Shown here: positions 6,196-39,860 of the stretch, piece after piece
Position numbering within the stretch: the first letter of the stretch is position 1
Layout of the letters: every line of letters starts with the position of its first letter
Assembly (NCBI RefSeq): GCF_030013595.1
Contig: NZ_CP122768.1
Length of the DNA stretch: 64,000 nucleotides
Source of the DNA: Escherichia coli
Lineage (GTDB): Bacteria > Pseudomonadota > Gammaproteobacteria > Enterobacterales > Enterobacteriaceae
Strand: one strand, 5' to 3'
Translations under genes and position numbers: made by a program
Notes under the pieces: generated by a model
What the model saw: the letters and a program-made list of their open reading frames with translations, nothing else
Database searches by the model: none
Told to the model about the DNA's origin: nothing

Positions 6196-6524
6196 ATTTA
6201 GAGACAGAGTCAGAAGTAACCTTCTAACTCAGTAGAATATGATCTTAATTTCTGTATCCGATGTTTATATTTTTTGTTGAACGCGCCCAGCGGCGTTATG
6301 AAAACTTCCTTGATTGTCATTTTTATGCATTCTCTTGATCGATAGGAATTTAAATCCCAAAAAGATTAAAAAAACACCCAAAAACGGATGTTTATTCGAC
6401 ACTGCCTGCGTGCCATGAGTGCACCGCCATCAATTAAATGGATCTTATCGAGTGATACTGTATATCACTGATGGTTTTTTACTCCATTCCCCTGAAAATG
6501 GACGCAACTTCCCCGATGCGGCTC

Positions 6525-7712
6525 TCAGCCGCACACCCGCTGTTGCGCCAGTGGCTCATGCATCAGGACCAGCTCTGTCAGACGGTAGCCCCGCTTCAGC
6601 CCCGTAAAACGCATCTGACATCCGCACAGGATGCACTTTAGCGGGTCAACCTTCAGTAACCGCTGATACATCCCTCTCCACCTGATTTGCATCGCCGTCT
6701 TTCTCACCGTCTCCGTTATGACGTACACAACATCTTCCAGTAACCGGCGCTTTACCGGACTCAGGAAACCGTAGTACCTCACCATACGGAACCCCTTATC
6801 CGCCACATGCCAGGAGAACCTTTCCATAAACTCATCACCACTCATCACCAGGTATTCTTCCCGTTTTGTCCGGTGACTGTTGTAACGCAGACCAATTTCA
6901 TCCTGACCAGCATAGTGCTCCAGACGGCTCATCGGCACCGGCGGTTTTTTCAGGTAAGAGCCGAAGTACACCGCCACATGTGTGGCGTTATCCATCACCC
7001 GGGATACGTTGACATTCCAGCCCCGCCGGTAATGACTGTCCAGGAAGCGATTCCAGTCCCGTCTGCTGCTTCCTTCAACTGCCAGCGCATCCGGTATCAC
7101 CAGCTCCGGGTATTTTCGTGACAGTAACCACGTTATCCTGTAACGCCACATGCTCATCACCTTACGGGCGTAAAAATGAAGGTTTTTCCAGGTGTGGTCT
7201 GGTGTCACGCCGCCGGCCGTTGTCGACAGGTGAATGTGCGGATGCCACTGCTGGTCACGTCCCCATGTGTGGATGACCGTGAATATCCCCGGCACCACAT
7301 CTGCCTGGCGGCAGATTTCCTGTATCACATCCGCAGCAATGCGGCTCATCTCTGCCAGTAACCACCGGTTGTGGAACACCAGGGACCAGTACTGGCAGGG
7401 AAGTGTGAACACAATATGCTGCCACGGACAGTCGGGAACCAGACTCAGCAGATACTGTATCCACTGTGCGCCAGCCTTCACTCCGCAGTGCGGGCAGGAG
7501 CGACTTTTACACCGGAAGCAGACCTTTTTTGTGTGGCAACAGTCCGGAGATGAACAGCACCACTGTGTGTACCCCATCAGCGTGGTTCCGCACGCCATGA
7601 TTTTTGTCACCGACTCAATGACTACCGGACGCACTGAACCTTCCGGTTGTTTCTCCAGCCAGTTAAGCCAGCGGTTTCCCTGCTGAAAAATGTCGGCAAA
7701 ACGGGGAAGCAT
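6525..7712 (-). CDS. tnpA: IS91-family transposase TnpA
   Basis: N-terminal Cys-rich zinc-binding region (CCSSPDCCH...CFRCKSRSCPHCG), HUH motif HPHIH, conserved Tyr-containing C-terminal region. Likely start at MLPRF (7712), sharing one nucleotide with the orf121 stop; ORF track extends to 7757. Confidence 0.85.
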   Translation of the reverse strand: MLPRFADIFQQGNRWLNWLEKQPEGSVRPVVIESVTKIMACGTTLMGYTQWCCSSPDCCHTKKVCFRCKSRSCPHCGVKAGAQWIQYLLSLVPDCPWQHIVFTLPCQYWSLVFHNRWLLAEMSRIAADVIQEICRQADVVPGIFTVIHTWGRDQQWHPHIHLSTTAGGVTPDHTWKNLHFYARKVMSMWRYRITWLLSRKYPELVIPDALAVEGSSRRDWNRFLDSHYRRGWNVNVSRVMDNATHVAVYFGSYLKKPPVPMSRLEHYAGQDEIGLRYNSHRTKREEYLVMSGDEFMERFSWHVADKGFRMVRYYGFLSPVKRRLLEDVVYVITETVRKTAMQIRWRGMYQRLLKVDPLKCILCGCQMRFTGLKRGYRLTELVLMHEPLAQQRVCG

Positions 7713-8077
7713 CAGAAGGGCGGGGGGACTCCGTCCGGCCAGTGAACCGTGCCACACTCCGGGCAGTACATGCCGCCGGCGCTGATACCGGCAAGAATGG
7801 TCGCAAACTCCCGCTCCGTGCAGCGGGCTATTTCAGGATACCCTTCGTCATCGACACGAACAAACCAGAAGACCAGCTTTTTGTTTCCGGCATCCACAAA
7901 GAAGGGAATATTCAGGTCTGCGCAGCACTCAACGGCATCGTCAAAATTATCAAAGCGCAGAGCTTCTGCGTCTTCTTCGTCAAAGAAGTCATCGTCGTGA
8001 AGCTTCACGACATAGCGGGGAAGTTTGCTTCTTTGAGGGGCAGGTTTTCGTTTACGGGGTTTAGCTGAACGGGACAT
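7712..8077 (-). CDS. IS91 accessory ORF (ORF121-like, 121 aa)
   Basis: 121-aa ORF immediately upstream of and overlapping tnpA, as in IS91. Confidence 0.65.
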   Translation of the reverse strand: MSRSAKPRKRKPAPQRSKLPRYVVKLHDDDFFDEEDAEALRFDNFDDAVECCADLNIPFFVDAGNKKLVFWFVRVDDEGYPEIARCTEREFATILAGISAGGMYCPECGTVHWPDGVPPPF

Positions 8078-8964
8078 ATAACTACCTGAAAGACAATGAT
8101 ATTGTCTGTTTTTATAACGGTAATTTCAGGCCATGACAAGCCGCAGCCGCCAAGCTGCCTACTCGAGCGATATCGCTATGATATCACCGAATGTAACATA
8201 CCTGTAGGGTCAAAAAAAGGGTCAGCCAAACATTCTGGAGTGTTCGGTATCGTTGGTACCATTCATGCAAAATGGACTTAAATCTTAAGAAAGACACTCC
8301 ATTAGCTTAAGCTTCCCTACCTTACCCTACCAATACACCTAGCCAGCCGTGAGAACGCTACCGCCATCAGAGGCATTAGTCCCGATTAAGTATCGATGCA
8401 ACCAAATGTTACCAAAATTCATGAATTGTTCAAGAAGGCAATCAGATAATCCCTAAAGCTTTATGGGCCTGGTTATGCGATTACATTGGGAAATGGTTCA
8501 TGAACAGAAGTAGAGCAAGCTGCCAAGAAATGCTCATAAGAGGCGAATTTCCTGTTAGTTCATGAAGCCACCTGGAAGTGAATTCATCTTTCTATTAAAA
8601 ATATTCATTTAAAGCAAAGAGATATGTCATCTGTGGTTTATGAACTGGATTCTCGCTCAACATAAGTTAAATGTGGTGGGTTTGTTCTTAAGTTCATGTG
8701 TTCCGCTCTTTCAGTAGCTTAACTGATGAATCAGTCAGCAGCTCTTGCCGTGCAAGCTACGCGGCGGTTCGTACCAGATTGGCCACCTCCATCTCCTGGT
8801 TCGCTTTCCCCTCCCCCCGGTAAACCTCACCCAACGTTAATTAATGATGTCAGTATGTGGGCGCTATCCTTGTATGTAAAATCCACTGACGATTATGCCC
8901 ATCTGTGAAAAAAACTCACAATGCCATTCGATGCATCTCCATACTGAACGAGGCGTTATCGTCT

Positions 8965-12031: not shown

Positions 12032-12133
12032 AGCCCGTCCGGAACAGACTGTCATGAATGACACACACGAACGGGCTGTTCCGGGTGATTCTAATCTGTA
12101 TCACTTTTACTGCTTTGTATGAATGGTGAGAAT

Positions 12134-12812
12134 ATGAAAATCATTTGCCTCGAAGAAAATTATCTCGACAGCGAGTTAGGGCGAGCGTGTATGCCTGTTG
12201 CGCTTGAGCAGGCACCTTTCCTTGGCGACTGGGGGAAAACCGTCGCTGATGGTCATAATCCTGACCGACTCCCTGCTTTCCCGCTTTAATAAACTGAATG
12301 TGCCACTCTATCTTCATCCCGGGTTACCGCTTAAAAGCGTACAGCAGGCCTACTTCACGGGCTTCAGCGCAGAGGTCAACGCCAGGCTTTCTATGTTTGC
12401 CTGGGGCTGGCATCACGAAGCGGGGATCCATTTGTTGCGGCTGATGTTATCGGGTGCATTTGATAAATATCCCCACTTGCAGGTAATCAGTGGCCACTGG
12501 GGGGAGATGTTACCCTTCTGGCTCCAGCGTCTTGATGACAGCCTACCACTGGCTGCAACGGGTCTGTCACGCACGCTAACGAGAACCTTCCAGCAACACG
12601 TTTACGTTACCCCGTCAGGTATGCTGACACTGCCGCACTTCAAGTTTATCTACGCGTTAATGGGGGCTGAAAGGATCCTGTTCTCCGTCGATTATCCCTA
12701 TCAGACCCCTGGACGGTGTAAAAACCTTTATAGACAGTCTGCCCGTCAACAAGGCTGAAAAAGAGGCCATCGCGTTTCGCAATGCAGAACGTTTACTGGG
12801 CATCACGGTTTA
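12134..12812 (+). pseudogene. Disrupted amidohydrolase-2 family gene (frameshifted/truncated)
   Basis: Three consecutive frames carry pieces: MKIICLEENY... (12134-), the 186-aa ORF 12198-12758 (…ISGHWGEMLPFWLQRLDD…FSVDYPYQ…) and a C-terminal tail …KEAIAFRNAERLLGITV ending ~12812. No single intact ORF. Confidence 0.55.
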
Positions 12813-12963
12813 GTTCACCGTTTCATGATGACTGAGCACATTGTGATCAGCCGACAATTATTAGTTTTTGCCTAAAAGTGAATGAGCCTTTACTGCTCTA
12901 AAAAAATAATGTTGTCACTCTATACTGGATTTAATATTCACCAAAGATGTTTAACTGATTGAA

Positions 12964-13536
12964 ATGAAAAATATCCTTGTTATTTCAGGTCATCCTGAGC
13001 TTACCCATTCCGTCGCCAATGCCACTATTCTTGATGAAGTGGAGACCGCCCTTCCCGATGTTGAGATTCGTCGTCTGGACAGGCTCTATCCGGATGGCAA
13101 ATTCAACATCGCGGCGGAGCAGAAAAGCCTGCTCAGGGCCGATGTGATTGTCTGGCAGTTCCCTTTTTCCTGGTATGGGCTGCCAGGATTAATGAAAAAA
13201 TGGCTGGACGAGGTCTTTGTTCACGGCTTCGCGCATGGCTCAACGGCGAAACTGGGCGGTAAAAAGCTGATCCTCTCCTTTACAACGGGAGCGCCAGAGG
13301 AGCTCTATACCGTCGACAGTTTCTTTGGCCATACCATTGAAGAGTATCTTATTCCGTTCGAAACCACGGCAAGGCTGTGCAATCTTGAGCTGCTGGCGCC
13401 GGTTTATACCTGCGGTATCAGCTATGCCGACCGGGATGCCGACAAAATCGCGCAGCAAAAAACGCTTGCCCGGGAACACGCTTCAAGGCTTGTCGAACTG
13501 CTCAATTCCGTCGTGAATAATCCAGAGGGAGAATAA
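12964..13536 (+). CDS. Flavodoxin-like NAD(P)H dehydrogenase (quinone) family protein
   Basis: 190 aa; MKNILVISGHPE... N-terminus and size typical of NAD(P)H:quinone oxidoreductase / KefF-like proteins. Confidence 0.75.
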   Translation: MKNILVISGHPELTHSVANATILDEVETALPDVEIRRLDRLYPDGKFNIAAEQKSLLRADVIVWQFPFSWYGLPGLMKKWLDEVFVHGFAHGSTAKLGGKKLILSFTTGAPEELYTVDSFFGHTIEEYLIPFETTARLCNLELLAPVYTCGISYADRDADKIAQQKTLAREHASRLVELLNSVVNNPEGE

Positions 13537-13538
13537 CA

Positions 13539-14558
13539 ATGCAGTATACCCGGCTCGGTAAAAGTGACTTACTTGTTTCCCGCATCTGCATGGGATGCAT
13601 GGGGTTTGGCGATCCGTCGACGGGTCAGCATAGCTGGACGCTGGACGAAACAGCAAGCCGCGACATCATTCGCTATGGCCTTGAAAAGGGCATCAACTTT
13701 TACGATACCGCTATAGCCTACCAGAATGGCTCCAGTGAGCGATACGTTGGCCGGGCATTACGGGAGATGGCGAAACGCGATGATATCGTCCTGGCCACCA
13801 AGTTTCTGCCGCGAACCCCCGCACAAATTGCCGGAGGGATCAGCGGAAAAGAGGCAATCGCTCAATCCCTTGACCAGAGCCTGAAGAATCTGGGGATGGA
13901 CTATATCGACCTCTACATCTACCACATCTGGGATTACAACACGCCCATTATCGACGTGCTTGAAGCGTTACATACCGCTGTTACTGCTGGCAAAGTACGA
14001 GCTGTTGGTATTTCAAACTGCTATGCCTGGCAGCTGGCGAAGGCGAACGCCCTTGCTGAACGCGAAGGGCTGACGCCCTTTGTTTCCGTACAGAGCCACT
14101 ACAATCTAATTATGCGCGAAGATGAACGGGAGCTCTTCGGCCTGTGCACTGAGGATAATATCGCAATGACCCCCTATAGCGCGCTGGCCAGCGGCCGCCT
14201 CTCTCGTAAAGAAGGCTATACACGGCGAGCCACAGAGGATGACTATGCGCGTGGAAAATATGACAGCACGGCTGAACAGGATCGCAACATTATTGAGCGT
14301 GTAGCCGAACTGGCCGAACGTCATCTGGTGTCAATGACGGAAATATCTCTCGCTTGGCTGCTGACAAAAGTCACATCACCTGTCGTAGGGGCTACAAAAA
14401 AAGCTCATGTCGATGGCGCGGTAAACGCAGTAAATCTTCAACTAAGTCCGGAGGAAATTCAGTTTCTGGAAGAAACCTACCAGCCGCATGTTCTGACGGG
14501 GATCATGGCGCAAAATACGCCGCAAACGAAAGATGTTAAGCAGGTCTGGATGCGATAG
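13539..14558 (+). CDS. Aldo/keto reductase family oxidoreductase (Tas/YajO-like)
   Basis: 339 aa; AKR hallmarks (…INFYDTAIAYQNGSSE…, …GISNCYAWQ…). Confidence 0.85.
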   Translation: MQYTRLGKSDLLVSRICMGCMGFGDPSTGQHSWTLDETASRDIIRYGLEKGINFYDTAIAYQNGSSERYVGRALREMAKRDDIVLATKFLPRTPAQIAGGISGKEAIAQSLDQSLKNLGMDYIDLYIYHIWDYNTPIIDVLEALHTAVTAGKVRAVGISNCYAWQLAKANALAEREGLTPFVSVQSHYNLIMREDERELFGLCTEDNIAMTPYSALASGRLSRKEGYTRRATEDDYARGKYDSTAEQDRNIIERVAELAERHLVSMTEISLAWLLTKVTSPVVGATKKAHVDGAVNAVNLQLSPEEIQFLEETYQPHVLTGIMAQNTPQTKDVKQVWMR

Positions 14559-14673
14559 CCCTTATTCACTTTTCCTCCTCTCGTCTTTGAGAGCGCCAGT
14601 AGCGGTCGGTTACGTTCTTACCAGCACCAGTTGATCGAACGTCTTAAACAGTAATGTCAGTAAAAAGATCATC

Positions 14674-15399
14674 GTGAAAAAGACTTTTATGCTTTTAATT
14701 TGCATGCTAATAAGCAGCCCTGTCTTTGCAACAAAACCGGACGCGCCGAATAAGCCGGAGATGAATATCTTCGAGCTCGGCATCAGACCCGATCGGGACA
14801 ACGACTTTGCAGACGTGGCCAGACAGACGATTTCCGCTTCGGTTGATCATGAAGCTGGTACACTGGCGATGTATGCCCTGAAACGCAGCGACAATTCAGG
14901 TCAGGCATTCATGTTCGAACTCTATGAAAATGAGCGTGCTTATCGCAAACATCTCAATGCCGCCCCATACAAAGCATTCGCTGCTCGTGCACCTGACATT
15001 ATTGACAGGAAGAAGAAAATTACCCTGGAGCCACAGTTTCTGGGCGACAAACACATCATACCGAATGAACGAACTATCAATAATCTGGTGATCGTCGAAG
15101 TAAAGCCTGAATTTCAGAGCGAATTTAGAAACATCGTCCTTCCTGAAATGGTCGAGTCGCTCAAAGTAGAGAAAGGCGTGTTAGCCATGTATGCCGGTAC
15201 AGATTCAGAGACTCCAAAACGATGGTATTTCTATGAGATTTACGCCAGTGAGGAGGATTATCAACTGCACCGACAAACGCTGCACTTCCTGGATTACCTC
15301 AGGCAAACGGCGCATATGAGCGCCAGGAAGGACGCAATCCCGGTAAAACCGGTATTTCTTCGTAACAAAGGCGGAATCAAACAGGAGCCGCAACGTTGA
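14674..15399 (+). CDS. Secreted tandem ABM (antibiotic-biosynthesis-monooxygenase-like) domain protein
   Basis: 241 aa; N-terminal signal-peptide-like MKKTFMLLICMLISSPVFA; two repeats of similar length, each with an ...AMYAL/AMYAG...YE.Y...Y..H pattern. Confidence 0.65.
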   Translation: MKKTFMLLICMLISSPVFATKPDAPNKPEMNIFELGIRPDRDNDFADVARQTISASVDHEAGTLAMYALKRSDNSGQAFMFELYENERAYRKHLNAAPYKAFAARAPDIIDRKKKITLEPQFLGDKHIIPNERTINNLVIVEVKPEFQSEFRNIVLPEMVESLKVEKGVLAMYAGTDSETPKRWYFYEIYASEEDYQLHRQTLHFLDYLRQTAHMSARKDAIPVKPVFLRNKGGIKQEPQR

Positions 15400-15414
15400 C
15401 CAGTAAGGATTAAC

Positions 15415-16218
15415 ATGAAAAGCGTACTTGCAGCAGCGGCTATGTCGCTTGTTATTTCTGATTTTGCCAATGCTGAGGAAACAAGAGGTAAAGCTATGAT
15501 GAAAATAGAACCGTCAGCGATTTCGGAAGCTGATATTCGTTCCGTCTCACCGGCTCTCGCGCGCTTTGGTCGCGAAGCTATTACTGAAGATCTGTGGACA
15601 CGCGACGCCCTCTCACCGAGGGATCGTAGTGTGGTGACCGTCGCCATGCTGATTGCCCGCAACCAGCCTGCCGAGCTTAAGCACTATATTGACGTCGCTC
15701 TCGATAGCGGCGTGACGCCAGCGGAATTATCAGAAATCATTACCCATCTGGCGTTCTACTCAGGTTGGCCAAATGCAATGTCAGCCGTCAGCGTGACCAA
15801 AGCAGTATTTGAAACTCGTGGCGTCACGGCAGATGCACTTCCTGAAGCTTCTCCGGACCTGCTTCCTCTCAATCAGGAAGCAGAAAAGCAGCGTTCAGAG
15901 ACAGTGGAAAAAAATGTTGGCCCAATATCTCCAGGCCTGGTTAAATTCACTGCTGATCCACTCTTCCTGGATCTCTGGCAAAGACCCGCGCTGAAACCCC
16001 GCGACAGAAGCCTGATTACGGTCAGCGCCTTAATCGCATCCGGACAGAGCGCGCAGATTGGCTATCACCTCAATAGAGCAATGGATAATGGACTTTCTGT
16101 TGAGGAAGCTGGTGAGATCGTTACCCAGGCCGCCTTCTATGCTGGCTGGCCAAACGCATTTACCGCTGCTCCGGTTGTGGGAGAGGTGCTAAACAATCGA
16201 TCATCGAGTAAAAGGTAA
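15415..16218 (+). CDS. Tandem carboxymuconolactone-decarboxylase (CMD) family protein, possibly exported
   Basis: 267 aa; two repeats each with ...LW.R.ALSPRDRS..TVA.LIA... and ...HL.RA.D.G...E..E...H.AFY.GWPNA... motifs; hydrophobic N-terminus. Confidence 0.7.
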   Translation: MKSVLAAAAMSLVISDFANAEETRGKAMMKIEPSAISEADIRSVSPALARFGREAITEDLWTRDALSPRDRSVVTVAMLIARNQPAELKHYIDVALDSGVTPAELSEIITHLAFYSGWPNAMSAVSVTKAVFETRGVTADALPEASPDLLPLNQEAEKQRSETVEKNVGPISPGLVKFTADPLFLDLWQRPALKPRDRSLITVSALIASGQSAQIGYHLNRAMDNGLSVEEAGEIVTQAAFYAGWPNAFTAAPVVGEVLNNRSSSKR

Positions 16219-16632
16219 CATTACTGAACACTAAAACCTGACGCACATCACAAAATTAGAACGATCAGTTCATGAACCAACAGACGTGACATCGAGTGAT
16301 TTATGGACAGCGTTTAACACAGTTATGAACCAAAACTGAGTTCATAACTGTGAGTTTGAATCGTCATTTGATTAATATCCATTTAAAACAGTTTGTTATG
16401 CTGTTTCTGGTGCTGAAGTCAATTATGTATATCCCTCAAACCCAGAATAGTTAAATGGAATTTGAGTGATGCGAAGCGATTTTACGGTCGTCGTTATTAC
16501 TTCAGGGTTCCAGAACATAAAGCCTCTCCTCTTTCATGATTGGCCTGTGCATACCGGATATAGGCTGGCTGGTATGCAGGTTTGCCGTTTGCCGCATCTT
16601 CCCTGCGTTGAAGAGTCAGGCTGGCAAACCGC

Positions 16633-16887
16633 GTGCAAATGAACACCCCCTCTTTCCATCAACACTTCAGACAGCTTGCGGGAATGAGTCCACTCCGGTA
16701 TCAGAAATGGCTACGCCTCAATGAAGCCAGGCGACTGATGCTGAATGAACATTACGATGTCACCACTGCAGCCTATGCTGTCGGTTACGAAAGCTTATCC
16801 CATTTCAGTCGGGAATATTCGCGGATGTTTGGAGAGTCACCTAAGAGAGATATTGCCAGGTTAAGAAAGTCTGTCGGTCAGCTTTAA
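16633..16887 (+). pseudogene. yneL: AraC-family regulator remnant (C-terminal HTH only), yneL-like
   Basis: 84-aa ORF carrying only an AraC C-terminal HTH (…FHQHFRQLAGMSPLRYQKWLRLNEARRLML…LSHFSREYSRMFGESP…); no N-terminal domain upstream. Matches the position of the K-12 yneL remnant next to the yde fimbrial genes. Confidence 0.6.
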
Positions 16888-17320
16888 TAAACCCTGCACT
16901 TATCTGTTTAAAGCAATTCCGTGTTAGTTACACCAGGCAAACATTAACTATGGCTAATGATTTATAGCCATATAAACCATTGGTCGCTCTTGACCTTTCC
17001 TGACACTTCCCTTGTTCGCAATAATATTCTGTTTAGTCGCTGTTTATAAATAACATGCATAATGAAATCGTAATGTTATTTAGCGACATAAAATGTCTTT
17101 GCAAATACTCTCTACAACAAGTGCTGCAATAAACTTGTTGTGATTAGGTGTCCTTGTAATTTAAAGATATTATCGTTCTTCGTGAAATGTAATAACCCTG
17201 GAAACTATATTCTCAGGGCAATATCCCATCAAGAATGATTCTTGTTTTATAAGCAATAACAGAATGACTTAATTGTTAACTTTCTTTATTCAGCTACTTA
17301 AATATAAATTTTGGAGAATT

Positions 17321-32885: not shown

Positions 32886-35258
32886 ATGAAGCGAGTTCTT
32901 ATTCCTGGCGTCATTTTATGTGGCGCTGATGTGGCGCAGGCCGTCGATGACAAAAACATGTACATGCATGTTTTTGAAGAGATGACGGTCTATGCTCCTG
33001 TCCCTGTACCCGTAAACGGCAATACGCATTACACCAGTGAAAGCATCGAGCGTTTACCGACCGGGAATGGCAATATCAGCGATCTGCTGAGAACCAACCC
33101 TGCTGTGCGCATGGATTCAACGCAAAGTACCTCGTTGAACTAGGGAGATATTCGCCCGGAGAAAATCTCTATTCACGGTGCGTCGCCCTACCAGAATGCC
33201 TATTTGATTGATGGTATTAGTGCAACTAATAACCTGAACCCAGCGAATGAGTCCGATGCCAGTAGTGCAACCAATATTAGCGGGATGTCACAGGGGTATT
33301 ATCTAGATGTCAGCTTACTTGACAATGTGACGCTTTATGACAGTTTTGTGCCGGTTGAATTTGGTCGCTTCAATGGCGGGGTAATTGATGCAAAGATCAA
33401 ACGCTTCAATGCTGATGATAGCAGCGTGAAACTGGGTTATCGCACTACGCGTTCGGACTGGTTAACATCGCATATCGATGAGAATAACAAGAGCGCATTT
33501 AATCAAGGTTCTTCAGGAAGTACTTATTACTCTCCAGATTTTAAAAAGAACTTTTATACCTTGTCGTTTAATCAGGAACTGGCTGATAACTTCGGCGTTA
33601 CCGCCGGTTTATCGCGCCGCCAGTCTGATATCACCCGCGCGGATTATGTTTCGAATGACGGCATTGTCGCCGGTCGGGCACAGTATAAAAACGTTATCGA
33701 TACCGCAGTGAGCAAATTTACCTGGTTTGCCAGCGACCGCTTTACCCACGATTTAACATTAAAATATACCGGCTCCAGTCGTGATTATAATACCAGCACC
33801 TTCCCGCAGTCTGATCGTGAAATGGGTAATAAATCCTACGGTCTGGCATGGGATATGGATACGCAGCTCGCAAGGGCCAAACTACGTACCACCGTTGGTT
33901 GGGATCATATTAGTGATTATACCCGTCACGATCATGACATCTGGTACACCGAACTTTCATGTACATATGGTGATATTACAGGGCGTTGCACCCGTGGCGG
34001 ATTAGGACACATTTCCCAGGCTGTAGATAATTACACCTTCAAAACACGCCTGGACTGGCAAAAATTCACCGTGGGTAATGTTTCGCATCAACCCTACTTC
34101 GGCGCGGAATACATCTATTCCGATGCATGGACTGAACGCCATAACCAGTCTGAATCCTATGTGATTAATGCTGCCGGAAAGAAAACTAACCATACCATTT
34201 ACCATAAAGGTAAAGGCAGCCTGGGAATTGACAACTACACGCTGTATATGGCGGATCGCATTAGCTGGCGTAATGTGTCATTAATGCCCGGCGTGCGGTA
34301 TGACTATGACAACTATCTGTCAAACCACAATATCTCCCCGCGCTTTATGACGGAATGGGATATTTTTGCTGATCAAACCTCAATGATTACCGCCGGTTAT
34401 AACCGTTACTATGGCGGGAATATTCTTGATATGGGATTACGTGATATCCGCAATAGCTGGACGGAATCGGTATCAGGAAATAAAACCCTGACGCGTTATC
34501 AGGATTTGAAAACACCTTATAACGATGAACTGGCAATGGGGTTGCAGCAGAAAATCGGTAAGAACGTTATTGCGCGTGCAAACTATGTTTATCGTGAAGC
34601 GCATGATCAAATCAGTAAAAGCAGTCGTACCGACAGCGCGACTAAAACCACCATTACTGAATATAACAACGACGGCAAAACCAAAACGCATTCGTTCAAC
34701 CTCAGTTTTGAACTGGCCGAACCCCTGCATATCAGCCAGGTAGATATTAACCCGCAAATTGTCTTTAGCTATATCAAGAGCAAGGGCAACTTGTCGTTAA
34801 ACAATGGTTATGAGGAAAGCAATACCGGCGATAACCAGGTGGTTTATAACGGTAATCTGGTCTCTTACGATAGCGTTCCAGTGGCAGATTTTAATAACCC
34901 ATTAAAGATCTCCTTAAACATGGATTTCACGCATCAACCGAGCGGGTTGGTGTGGGCGAATACGCTGGCCTGGCAAGAAGCGCGTAAAGCTCGCATTATC
35001 CTGGGTAAGACGAATGCGCAATACATCAGCGAATATTCAGATTACAAGCAGTATGTTGACGAAAAACTGGATAGCAGCCTGACCTGGGACACCCGCTTGT
35101 CCTGGACGCCACAATTTCTGAAACAACAAAACCTGACGATCAGTGCCGATATTCTCAATGTACTGGATAGCAAAACCGCGGTTGATACAACGAATACCGG
35201 TGTGGCGACCTACGCCAGTGGCCGTACTTTCTGGCTTGATGTCAGCATGAAATTTTAA
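32886..35258 (+). pseudogene. yddB: TonB-dependent outer-membrane receptor YddB interrupted by an in-frame amber codon
   Basis: N-terminal 85-aa ORF (signal peptide) ends at a stop at 33141-33143; the same frame continues (GDIRPEKISIHGASPYQNAYLIDG…) into the 684-aa ORF 33204-35258. Single in-frame nonsense codon rather than a frameshift. Confidence 0.8.
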
Positions 35259-35302: not shown

Positions 35303-38098
35303 ATGGAGATAATTATGAGAAACCTCTGTTTCTTACTGACGTTAGTGGCAACTCTGTTGCTCCCCGGGCGACTGATTGCCGCCGCCTTACCGCAGGATGA
35401 AAAGTTAATTACCGGGCAACTGGACAATGGCTTGCGATATATGATTTATCCGCATGCTCAACCAAAGGATCAGGTAAATTTATGGCTGCAAATTCATACG
35501 GGTTCATTGCAGGAAGAAGACAATGAGCGCGGCGTGGCTCATTTTGTAGAACATATGATGTTTAACGGCACAAAAACATGGCCGGGTAATAAAGTCATCG
35601 AAACATTTGAGTCAATGGGCCTGCGCTTTGGTCGCGATGTTAATGCCTATACCAGCTATGACGAAACGGTGTATCAGGTAAGTTTGCCGACTACGCAGAA
35701 ACAAAATCTGCAACAAGTGATGGCAATATTCAGTGAATGGGGTAATGCCGCAACCTTTGATAAACTCGAAGTAGACGCTGAACGCGGCGTAATTACTGAG
35801 GAATGGCGTGCCCATCAGGATGCGAAATGGCGCACCTCTCAGGCGCGCCGCCCTTTCCTGCTGGCAAATACCCGTAATTTAGAGCGTGAACCTATCGGCC
35901 TGATGGATACTGTCGCCACGGTCACACCGGCACAATTGCGCCAATTTTATCAACGCTGGTATCAACCAAATAATATGACCTTTATCGTGGTCGGCGATAT
36001 CGACAGTAAAGAAGCGCTGGCGCTGATTAAGGATAATTTAAGTAAGCTTCCGGCTAACAAAGCAGCTGAAAATCGCGTCTGGCCGACAAAAGCCGAAAAT
36101 CACCTGCGCTTTAATATCATTAATGATAAAGAAAACCGGGTGAACGGCATCGCACTCTATTATCGCCTGCCAATGGTACAAGTGAACGATGAGCAAAGCT
36201 TTATCGAACAAGCTGAATGGAGCATGTTAGTTCAGCTGTTCAATCAACGTCTGCAGGAACGCATACAGTCGGGCGAGTTGAAGACTATTTCTGGCGGCAC
36301 TGCGCGCAGCGTTAAAATTGCACCCGATTATCAGTCGCTGTTTTTCCGTGTAAATGCACGAGACGATAATATGCAGGATGCTGCGAATGCATTAATGGCA
36401 GAGTTGGCAACTATTGATCAGCATGGTTTTTCTGCTGAAGAACTCGATGATGTCAAATCTACCCGCCTCACCTGGCTGAAAAATGCGGTTGATCAGCAAG
36501 CTGAACGTGATTTACGTATGCTGACCAGTCGCCTGGCATCCAGCTCATTAAATAATACGCCGTTCTTGTCGCCGGAAGAGACATATCAACTTTCGAAACG
36601 TCTGTGGCAGCAAATTACCGTGCAAAGTCTGGCGGAAAAATGGCAGCAGTTAAGAAAGAACCAGGATGCATTTTGGGAGCAAATGGTAAAAAATGAGGTT
36701 GCTGCCAAAAAAGCATTGTCTCCTGCGGCTATCCTGGCGCTGGAAAAAGAGTACGCCAACAAAAAGCTGGCGGCTTACATCTTCCCAGGCAGAAATTTAT
36801 CGTTAACAGTAGACGCTGACCCACAGGCGGAAATTAGCAGCAAAGAAACGCTGGCTGAGAATCTGACATCATTAACACTTTCCAATGGTGCCAGGGTTAT
36901 TCTGGCAAAATCCGCGGGTGAAGAGCAAAAGCTACAAATTACTGCCGTATCTAATAAAGGCGATTTAAGTTTCCCTGCGCAGCAAAAATCACTTATCGCG
37001 CTGGCAAATAAAGCAGTAAGCGGAAGCGGCGTTGGTGAACTCTCCTCTTCCAGCCTGAAACGCTGGAGTGCGGAAAACTCGGTAACCATGAGCAGTAAAG
37101 TCAGTGGCATGAATACGTTGCTCTCCGTTAGCGCGCGGGCTAATAACCCTGAACCTGGTTTCCAGTTGATTAACCAGCGAATCCCCCACAGCACGATTAA
37201 CAACAATATTTGGGCATCGCTACAAAATGCTCAAATTCAGGCGTTGAAAACGCTCGACCAGCGTCCAGCGGAGAAATTCGCCCAGCAGATGTATGAGACG
37301 CGCTATGCTGATGACCGCACGAAATTACTGCAAGAAAATCAGATTGCACAGTTTACTGCCGCAGATGCGCTGGCTGCCGATCGCCAGTTGTTTTCATCTC
37401 CAGCGGATATCACGTTTGTCATTGTCGGTAATGTCGCAGAAGACAAACTCGTGGCGTTAATTACGCGTTACTTAGGATCAATCAAACACTCTGATTCGCC
37501 ATTAGCCGCAGGTAAACCATTAACTCGCGCGACGGACAACGCATCGGTTACTGTAAAAGAACAAAATGAACCTGTGGCACAGGTTTCACAGTGGAAGCGT
37601 TATGATTCCCGGACACCGGTTAATCTGGCGACGCGTATGGCGCTCGATGCTTTTAACGTCGCACTGGCAAAAGATCTACGCATTAATATTCGTGAACAGG
37701 CCTCTGGGGCATACAGCGTTTCTTCTCGCCTCTCGGTTGATCCTCAGGCCAAAGATATCAGTCATTTGCTGGCTTTTACTTGTCAACCGGAACGACATGA
37801 TGAACTGTTAACGTTAGCGAATGAAGTGATGGTTAAGCGTCTGGCTAAAGGGATCAGTGAGCAAGAACTGAACGAATACCAGCAAAACGTTCAGCGCAGC
37901 CTCGATATCCAACAGCGTAGCGTTCAACAATTAGCGAACACCATTGTAAATAGTCTTATTCAATATGACGATCCTGCAGCATGGACTGAGCAGGAGCAAT
38001 TGTTGAAACAAATGACGGTAGAGAATGTTAACACTGCCGTTAAACAATATCTTTCTCATCCGGTGAATACCTATACCGGAGTATTATTGCCAAAATAA
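35303..38098 (+). CDS. pqqL: Periplasmic M16-family zinc protease PqqL
   Basis: About 931 aa; HFVEH inverted zinc-binding motif; signal peptide; K-12 synteny. Start 35303 (MEIIM) versus 35315 (MRNL) not resolved. Confidence 0.9.
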   Translation: MEIIMRNLCFLLTLVATLLLPGRLIAAALPQDEKLITGQLDNGLRYMIYPHAQPKDQVNLWLQIHTGSLQEEDNERGVAHFVEHMMFNGTKTWPGNKVIETFESMGLRFGRDVNAYTSYDETVYQVSLPTTQKQNLQQVMAIFSEWGNAATFDKLEVDAERGVITEEWRAHQDAKWRTSQARRPFLLANTRNLEREPIGLMDTVATVTPAQLRQFYQRWYQPNNMTFIVVGDIDSKEALALIKDNLSKLPANKAAENRVWPTKAENHLRFNIINDKENRVNGIALYYRLPMVQVNDEQSFIEQAEWSMLVQLFNQRLQERIQSGELKTISGGTARSVKIAPDYQSLFFRVNARDDNMQDAANALMAELATIDQHGFSAEELDDVKSTRLTWLKNAVDQQAERDLRMLTSRLASSSLNNTPFLSPEETYQLSKRLWQQITVQSLAEKWQQLRKNQDAFWEQMVKNEVAAKKALSPAAILALEKEYANKKLAAYIFPGRNLSLTVDADPQAEISSKETLAENLTSLTLSNGARVILAKSAGEEQKLQITAVSNKGDLSFPAQQKSLIALANKAVSGSGVGELSSSSLKRWSAENSVTMSSKVSGMNTLLSVSARANNPEPGFQLINQRIPHSTINNNIWASLQNAQIQALKTLDQRPAEKFAQQMYETRYADDRTKLLQENQIAQFTAADALAADRQLFSSPADITFVIVGNVAEDKLVALITRYLGSIKHSDSPLAAGKPLTRATDNASVTVKEQNEPVAQVSQWKRYDSRTPVNLATRMALDAFNVALAKDLRINIREQASGAYSVSSRLSVDPQAKDISHLLAFTCQPERHDELLTLANEVMVKRLAKGISEQELNEYQQNVQRSLDIQQRSVQQLANTIVNSLIQYDDPAAWTEQEQLLKQMTVENVNTAVKQYLSHPVNTYTGVLLPK

Positions 38099-38360
38099 TA
38101 ACAGCCCCGTCAACACCTCGTTGGCGGGGATTTTAGCAATATTCGCTATTTTTATGTAATAATTTTATAAATGCGTTCAAAATAATAACCAAGTACTAAT
38201 AGTGATATTTTAAGGACTGATTTTTACGTGATAATTCAGGAGGCGTAGAAAGCGCATAAAAATAACAACATAAAACACTTTACCACCACCAAAAAATTCT
38301 CTATTGCATTGTTTTTTAATGAAAAAGCATTATTCTCGTAATATTTCACGATAAATAACA

Positions 38361-38380
38361 TTAGGATTTTGTTATTTAAA
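38361..38380 (+). promoter_or_regulatory. GAD box (GadE/GadX-RcsB binding site) upstream of gadB
   Basis: Exact TTAGGATTTTGTTATTTAAA, the 20-bp gad box as I recall it, ~80 bp upstream of the gadB start. Confidence 0.7.
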
Positions 38381-38459
38381 CCCGAGTCCTTTGCACTTGC
38401 TTACTTTATCGATAAATCCTACTTTTTTAATGCGATCCAATCATTTTAAGGAGTTTAAA

Positions 38460-39860
38460 ATGGATAAGAAGCAAGTAACGGATTTAAGGTCGGAACTACT
38501 CGATTCACGTTTTGGTGCGAAGTCTATTTCCACTATCGCAGAATCAAAACGATTTCCGCTGCACGAAATGCGCGATGATGTCGCATTCCAGATTATCAAT
38601 GACGAATTATATCTTGATGGCAACGCTCGTCAGAACCTGGCCACTTTCTGCCAGACCTGGGACGACGAAAATGTCCATAAGTTGATGGATTTATCCATTA
38701 ACAAAAACTGGATCGACAAAGAAGAATATCCGCAATCTGCAGCAATCGACCTGCGTTGCGTAAACATGGTTGCCGATCTGTGGCATGCGCCTGCGCCGAA
38801 AAATGGTCAGGCCGTTGGCACCAACACCATTGGTTCTTCCGAGGCCTGTATGCTCGGCGGGATGGCGATGAAATGGCGTTGGCGCAAGCGTATGGAAGCT
38901 GCAGGCAAACCAACGGATAAACCAAACCTGGTGTGCGGTCCGGTGCAAATCTGCTGGCATAAATTCGCCCGCTACTGGGATGTGGAGCTGCGTGAGATCC
39001 CTATGCGCCCCGGTCAGTTGTTTATGGACCCGAAACGCATGATTGAAGCCTGCGACGAAAACACCATCGGCGTGGTGCCGACTTTCGGCGTGACCTACAC
39101 CGGTAACTATGAGTTCCCGCAACCGCTGCACGATGCGCTGGATAAATTCCAGGCCGACACCGGTATCGACATCGACATGCACATCGACGCCGCCAGCGGT
39201 GGCTTCCTGGCACCGTTCGTCGCCCCGGATATCGTCTGGGACTTCCGCCTGCCGCGTGTGAAATCGATCAGTGCTTCAGGCCATAAATTCGGTCTGGCTC
39301 CGCTGGGCTGCGGCTGGGTTATCTGGCGTGATGAAGAAGCGCTGCCGCAGGAACTGGTGTTCAACGTTGACTACCTCGGTGGTCAGATTGGGACTTTCGC
39401 CATCAACTTCTCCCGCCCGGCGGGTCAGGTAATTGCACAGTACTATGAATTCCTGCGCCTCGGTCGTGAAGGCTATACCAAAGTACAGAACGCCTCTTAC
39501 CAGGTTGCCGCTTATCTGGCGGATGAAATCGCCAAACTGGGGCCGTATGAGTTCATCTGTACCGGTCGCCCGGACGAAGGCATCCCGGCGGTTTGCTTCA
39601 AACTGAAAGATGGTGAAGATCCGGGATACACCCTGTACGACCTCTCTGAACGTCTGCGTCTGCGCGGCTGGCAGGTTCCGGCCTTCACTCTTGGCGGTGA
39701 AGCTACCGACATCGTGGTGATGCGCATTATGTGTCGTCGCGGCTTCGAAATGGACTTTGCTGAACTGTTGCTGGAAGACTACAAAGCCTCCCTGAAATAT
39801 CTCAGCGACCACCCGAAACTGCAGGGTATTGCCCAGCAGAACAGCTTTAAACATACCTGA
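38460..39860 (+). CDS. gadB: Glutamate decarboxylase beta
   Basis: 466 aa from [26 protein letters not shown]-dependent decarboxylase; identified as gadB rather than gadA by gadC immediately downstream. Confidence 0.95.

Follow-up and report, generated by a model that had tools for sequence, protein, structure and literature searches.

The analysed window is a stretch of 64,000 nucleotides of the Escherichia coli chromosome (positions are counted from its first letter). Its closest complete genome is that of the pig isolate HCP5S3_I2, with 99.9% identity over 25 kb. The glutamate decarboxylase operon gadB-gadC is found here in the gene order yddA-yddB-pqqL-gadB-gadC-digH-dosC, as in K-12 and other E. 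coli. Between pqqL and gadB lies an intergenic region of 361 bp with 30% G+C, which contains a GAD box. The following features were assigned:

38105..38134, + strand: terminator-like hairpin with U-run (10-bp stem, 5-nt loop, -18.6 kcal/mol, z = -4.6, then AUUUU)
38213..38232, + strand: candidate GadX/GadW-type motif, fitting AKGKCTGWTWTTWWYMYVAK (PMC4918353) with 2 mismatches
38361..38380, + strand: GAD box TTAGGATTTTGTTATTTAAA, exact; activator site of the gadBC promoter and, by PMC2887963, site of the RcsB/GadE heterodimer
38397..38402, + strand: putative -35 hexamer TTGCTT, assigned by homology; same as in K-12, with 16 bp between it and the box
38410..38422, + strand: RcsB box-like element CGATAAATCCTAC with putative borders, adjoining or overlapping the -10; putative site for repression by activated RcsB
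38420..38425, + strand: putative -10 hexamer TACTTT, 17 bp after the putative -35 and identical to K-12 gadB and gadA
about 38433..38434, + strand: predicted transcription start, computed from the box centre (38370.5) and the 63 bp of PMC2887963
38448..38453, + strand: Shine-Dalgarno sequence AAGGAG, read off directly, with 6 nt to the ATG
38460..39860, + strand: gadB, glutamate decarboxylase B, intact; product the same as K-12 GadB at 466/466 aa
40016..41551, + strand: gadC, glutamate:GABA antiporter, intact; 508/511 aa identical to K-12 GadC, no gaps

The gadB reading frame is contained in frame within a longer ORF (38391-39860), and matching genomes annotate 38460-39860 as gadB. The encoded protein is also identical to K-12 GadA at 461 of 466 positions, the differences being N-terminal substitutions: K-12 GadA begins with MDQKLLTDFRS, whereas the gene downstream of the box has the GadB N-terminus. 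Identity as gadA was rejected on the basis of these GadB-type residues, the presence of gadC downstream and the synteny with pqqL. The box thus precedes a glutamate decarboxylase operon with GadB 100% and GadC 99% identical to K-12.

The hairpin at 38105-38134 is located directly 3' of pqqL, the stop codon of which ends at 38098, and separates pqqL from the gadB promoter. Such a stable structure after pqqL fits a promoter of its own for gadBC.

Several other features of the window were recorded by comparison with HCP5S3_I2. In yddB (32886-35258), which encodes a TonB-dependent receptor and lies 5' of pqqL, an in-frame TAG was present at codon 86 (33141-33143; Q86*). The codon is CAG in K-12 and strain 118UI. 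Codon 86 is intact in HCP5S3_I2, where a different nonsense codon occurs at 322; two separate inactivation events thus seem to have hit yddB in very closely related strains. At approximately 6345-8161, an insertion of about 1.8 kb was found that is missing at the same site in HCP5S3_I2. It matches IS91-family transposase elements at 99.5-99.8%, and most places of these elements (3002 of 3473) are on E. coli plasmids. A 9.65-kb stretch (12123-21775) carries fimbrial usher and chaperone genes, aldo/keto reductases, a carboxymuconolactone decarboxylase-family gene and others; in its place HCP5S3_I2 has a copy of the IS4-like element ISVsa5, truncating fimF. For the segment 1-6344, HCP5S3_I2 annotates Xre/MbcA-type antitoxin-like genes, an AAA family ATPase and two 'ABC-three component system' proteins, and its counterpart there adjoins integrase genes and hipBA. 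This segment may be a defence or mobile island.

The 20-mer TTAGGATTTTGTTATTTAAA was re-read at 38361-38380 on the plus strand with 20/20 positions identical (0 mismatches). It was the sole match in the window on either strand, even when 3 mismatches were allowed (0.01 expected from shuffled sequences). The sequence equals the published consensus of the GadE site, TTAGGAttTTgTTATTTAAa (PMC4918353), and the G of the left half-site is kept (GG of TTAGGA at 38364-38365). From the end of the box to the gadB ATG at 38460 the distance is 79 nt, and the first box base lies 99 nt 5' of the A. The sequence-only reading, which had placed an exact box at these positions about 80 bp upstream of gadB, was therefore correct as to sequence, coordinates and distance. 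The comparison with the K-12 gadB promoter that it had named as a check likewise returned an identical box.

The left half of the box, TTAGGATTT, was found at two further places in the window, 23982-23990 (minus strand) and 63668-63676 (plus strand). The total of three copies compares with 0.63 expected, and 3 of 100 shuffles reached this number. One of the extra copies lies on the opposite strand, 28 nt 5' of the ATG of ydeP. In the window search with up to 3 mismatches, neither copy was part of a full GAD box.

The geometry of the promoter follows published work. The GAD box was described as a 20-bp consensus centred 63 bp 5' of the gadA and gadBC transcription starts and located 16 bp 5' of the gadA -35 (PMC2887963). 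In the window, the gap between the box and the putative -35 is likewise 16 bp, and the predicted transcription start would give a leader of about 26-27 nt. A simple sigma-70 scan did not call the gadB promoter, and the putative hexamers fit only about 7 of 12 positions. This is as expected for a weak, activator-dependent promoter, and the -35 and -10 were therefore placed by homology and published spacing. Just 5' of the -10, a second RcsB box mediates repression, and gadB is reported to keep it except for C instead of G at the left end (PMC2887963). The corresponding region reads CGATAAATCC in the window and GGATAAATCC in gadA; the left end is C in the window, as predicted for gadB, versus G in K-12 gadA.

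Comparison of the whole 361-bp intergenic region with K-12 yielded 20 differences, 19 of which fall between -343 and -115 relative to the ATG. These distal differences are substitutions or indels and leave the box untouched. From 38346 to the ATG, only one difference was detected, at 38382 (C here, A in K-12), two bases past the box. K-12 thus has the same 20-mer at the same distance from the ATG and between the same neighbours, pqqL and gadB-gadC. The element of the K-12 gadBC promoter is reportedly the GAD box of Castanie-Cornet & Foster 2001 and Ma et al. 2003. As such, the box found here is an already known, textbook element and an ordinary find.

The K-12 gadA promoter also contains the identical 20-mer and has the TTGCTT -35, the RcsB-box core GATAAATCCTAC and the -10 region in common with gadB. 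Four blocks are shared by the two K-12 promoters, namely the 20-mer, TTGCTT, GATAAATCCTACTTTTTTA and the ribosome-binding region. In contrast, the sequence 5' of the box and the 16-bp spacer 3' of it are unrelated between gadA and gadB. Since the box is identical while its flanks have strongly diverged, the 20-mer behaves as a constrained, discrete unit rather than as one piece of a long homogenised tract.

The GadE motif from ChIP-exo, TTARGAWWWWAAATA (PMC4918353), agrees with the box in its left half TTAGGA and the following A/T run, but the right half of the box, GTTAT, does not fit AAATA. Owing to this right half, the gadB box was missed when the window was searched with TTARGAWWWWAAATA at up to 2 mismatches. 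The search returned 8 matches with 4.7 expected, which is within chance, and the motif was rejected as a finder of more sites.

Conservation within the species was assessed with a 31-mer (38350-38380) consisting of 11 gadB-specific bases and the box. It was present in 5364 of 5426 complete E. coli genomes (about 99%), and 5365 of the 5366 31-mer records were at 99% identity or more. In addition, seven gadB promoters chosen across the identity range were compared (K-12, O157:H7 and others down to 93%). Over approximately 110 bp, from 38350 up to the ATG and including the box, all seven were invariant, save at 38381-38383. These three positions directly 3' of the box read CCC in the window and ACC, CAC or CCA in other E. 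coli. In the mouse isolate MSI001 (NZ_CP076645.1), the match to the gadB promoter ends at the equivalent of 38393, a position that falls between box and -35; a second match place exists in the same record. This suggests an insertion or rearrangement parting the box from the core promoter in that strain.

For distribution beyond the species, a set of 100,044 species, each represented by one genome (298 Gb in all), was searched on both strands for the exact 20-mer. Within Escherichia it occurred eight times, in E. coli, E. albertii, E. whittamii and Escherichia sp. E1V33. All eight copies lie 79-80 nt before a start of the gadA type (MDQKLL) or the gadB type (MDKKQV), and a 1-nt length difference in a T-run was noted at three of these loci. 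The box precedes a gadA-type gene in E. albertii and E. whittamii and both genes in Escherichia sp. E1V33, and the flanks have diverged. Three more exact copies were obtained from unrelated metagenome-assembled genomes of Lentisphaeria and Bacteroidales, with no gad gene adjoining. A few chance matches are expected for an AT-rich 20-mer in 298 Gb searched on both strands, and these three look like chance. The GAD box is thus genus-specific, gad-specific and essentially fixed within E. coli.

Binding at the box has been characterised on the gadA promoter of K-12 and was carried to gadB by sequence conservation (PMC2887963). In that work, MBP-GadE alone gave no protection, whereas GadE together with RcsB protected -50 to -76, and the M1 G-to-C change in the box abolished both binding and GadE-dependent activation (PMC2887963). 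GadE activates gadA and gadBC over 50-fold, and GadX under 2-fold (PMC4918353). On these data, which stem mainly from gadA of K-12, the most likely mechanism would be that an RcsB/GadE heterodimer occupies the box near -63, GadE by itself being unable to bind. Once bound, the heterodimer would switch on the genes for glutamate decarboxylase and the antiporter at low pH or in stationary phase, and the second RcsB site beside the -10 would repress them under strong Rcs activation. The same mechanism would operate in the present strain if functional gadE and rcsB are encoded elsewhere in its genome.

The sequence-only reading had further taken the box as support for intact GadE-dependent acid-resistance regulation in this strain. 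The exact box, its published geometry and the intact gadB and gadC agree with the claim as far as the cis site and the operon go. It goes too far in that gadE and rcsB lie outside the window and the box is invariant across the species. The term GadE-dependent is incomplete, as it is GadE paired with RcsB, and not GadE by itself, that binds the site (PMC2887963). No gadE, gadX or gadW was found in the window by tblastn with the K-12 proteins; the only matches were to the AraC-family paralogue YdeO (26817-27578). In K-12, the acid fitness island that holds gadE, gadX and gadW lies about 2 Mb from this locus, and rcsB also maps elsewhere. With gadE and rcsB outside, intact regulation in the strain cannot be read from the window, and an element carried by about 99% of E. 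coli genomes gives no means of telling a strain with working regulation from one without. The genes ydeP, safA and ydeO (24018-27578), located about 11 kb 5' of gadB, are all full-length. They belong to the EvgAS > YdeO > GadE cascade (PMC4222967) and lend modest extra support to GadE-dependent regulation here.

Three other explanations for an exact box at this locus were weighed. An AT-rich 20-mer could match by chance and have no regulatory meaning; the low G+C content of the intergenic region and the exact copies without a gad gene in three unrelated metagenome genomes among 298 Gb would be in keeping with this. However, only 0.01 matches are expected in the window even at 3 mismatches, the position is orthologous to that of the characterised K-12 box, and the surrounding promoter is identical to K-12 save 38382, which leaves chance a negligible probability. 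Alternatively, the exactness of the box could stem from homogenisation by gene conversion between gadA and gadB instead of selection on a binding site, given that GadA and GadB are 99% identical in protein and that the promoters have common blocks of identity. A conversion tract would, however, not spare exactly the flanks on both sides of the box, which have strongly diverged between gadA and gadB. The exact box with diverged flanks also occurs in E. albertii, E. whittamii and Escherichia sp. E1V33, and function is lost on mutating the conserved G (PMC2887963). Gene conversion is accordingly considered very improbable, if less so than chance.

The third explanation concerns not the box itself but its use: it could be intact and silent if a trans component outside the window (gadE, rcsB, rpoS or the EvgA-YdeO cascade) were defective. 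The location of gadE, gadX and gadW outside the window would allow for this, as would the near-invariance of the box in E. coli, which says nothing on trans factors, and the lineage does have nearby pseudogenes such as yddB with Q86*. On the other hand, the cascade members inside the window, ydeP, safA and ydeO, are full-length, and neither gadB (100%) nor gadC (99%) exhibits decay relative to K-12, which would be unexpected after a long time without expression. A silent box is hence regarded as unlikely, though the least so of the three. The preferred reading takes the site for the canonical gadBC GAD box of E. coli and the RcsB/GadE mechanism for its best explanation; nothing in the sequence speaks against this reading, and it is held with high confidence.

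The distal part of the promoter merits separate mention. The GadX/GadW-type motif at 38213-38232 is the only such match in the window. It has 2 mismatches compared to 1 in the K-12 gadB promoter, due to a T-to-A change at 38216, a conserved K position; this change is one of the 19 distal differences from K-12. A frozen proximal RcsB/GadE module next to an unusually diverged distal promoter might speculatively point to altered GadX/GadW or H-NS input and a retuned switch-on of gadBC in this lineage; from the sequence comparison, we consider this a long shot.

Taken as a whole, the analysis confirms the correct annotation of a known regulatory site and an intact gadBC operon with its proximal promoter. 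A near-universal element is no evidence on the regulatory state of one strain; that state hinges on gadE, rcsB, rpoS and the EvgA-YdeO cascade, which are mostly encoded elsewhere in the genome.
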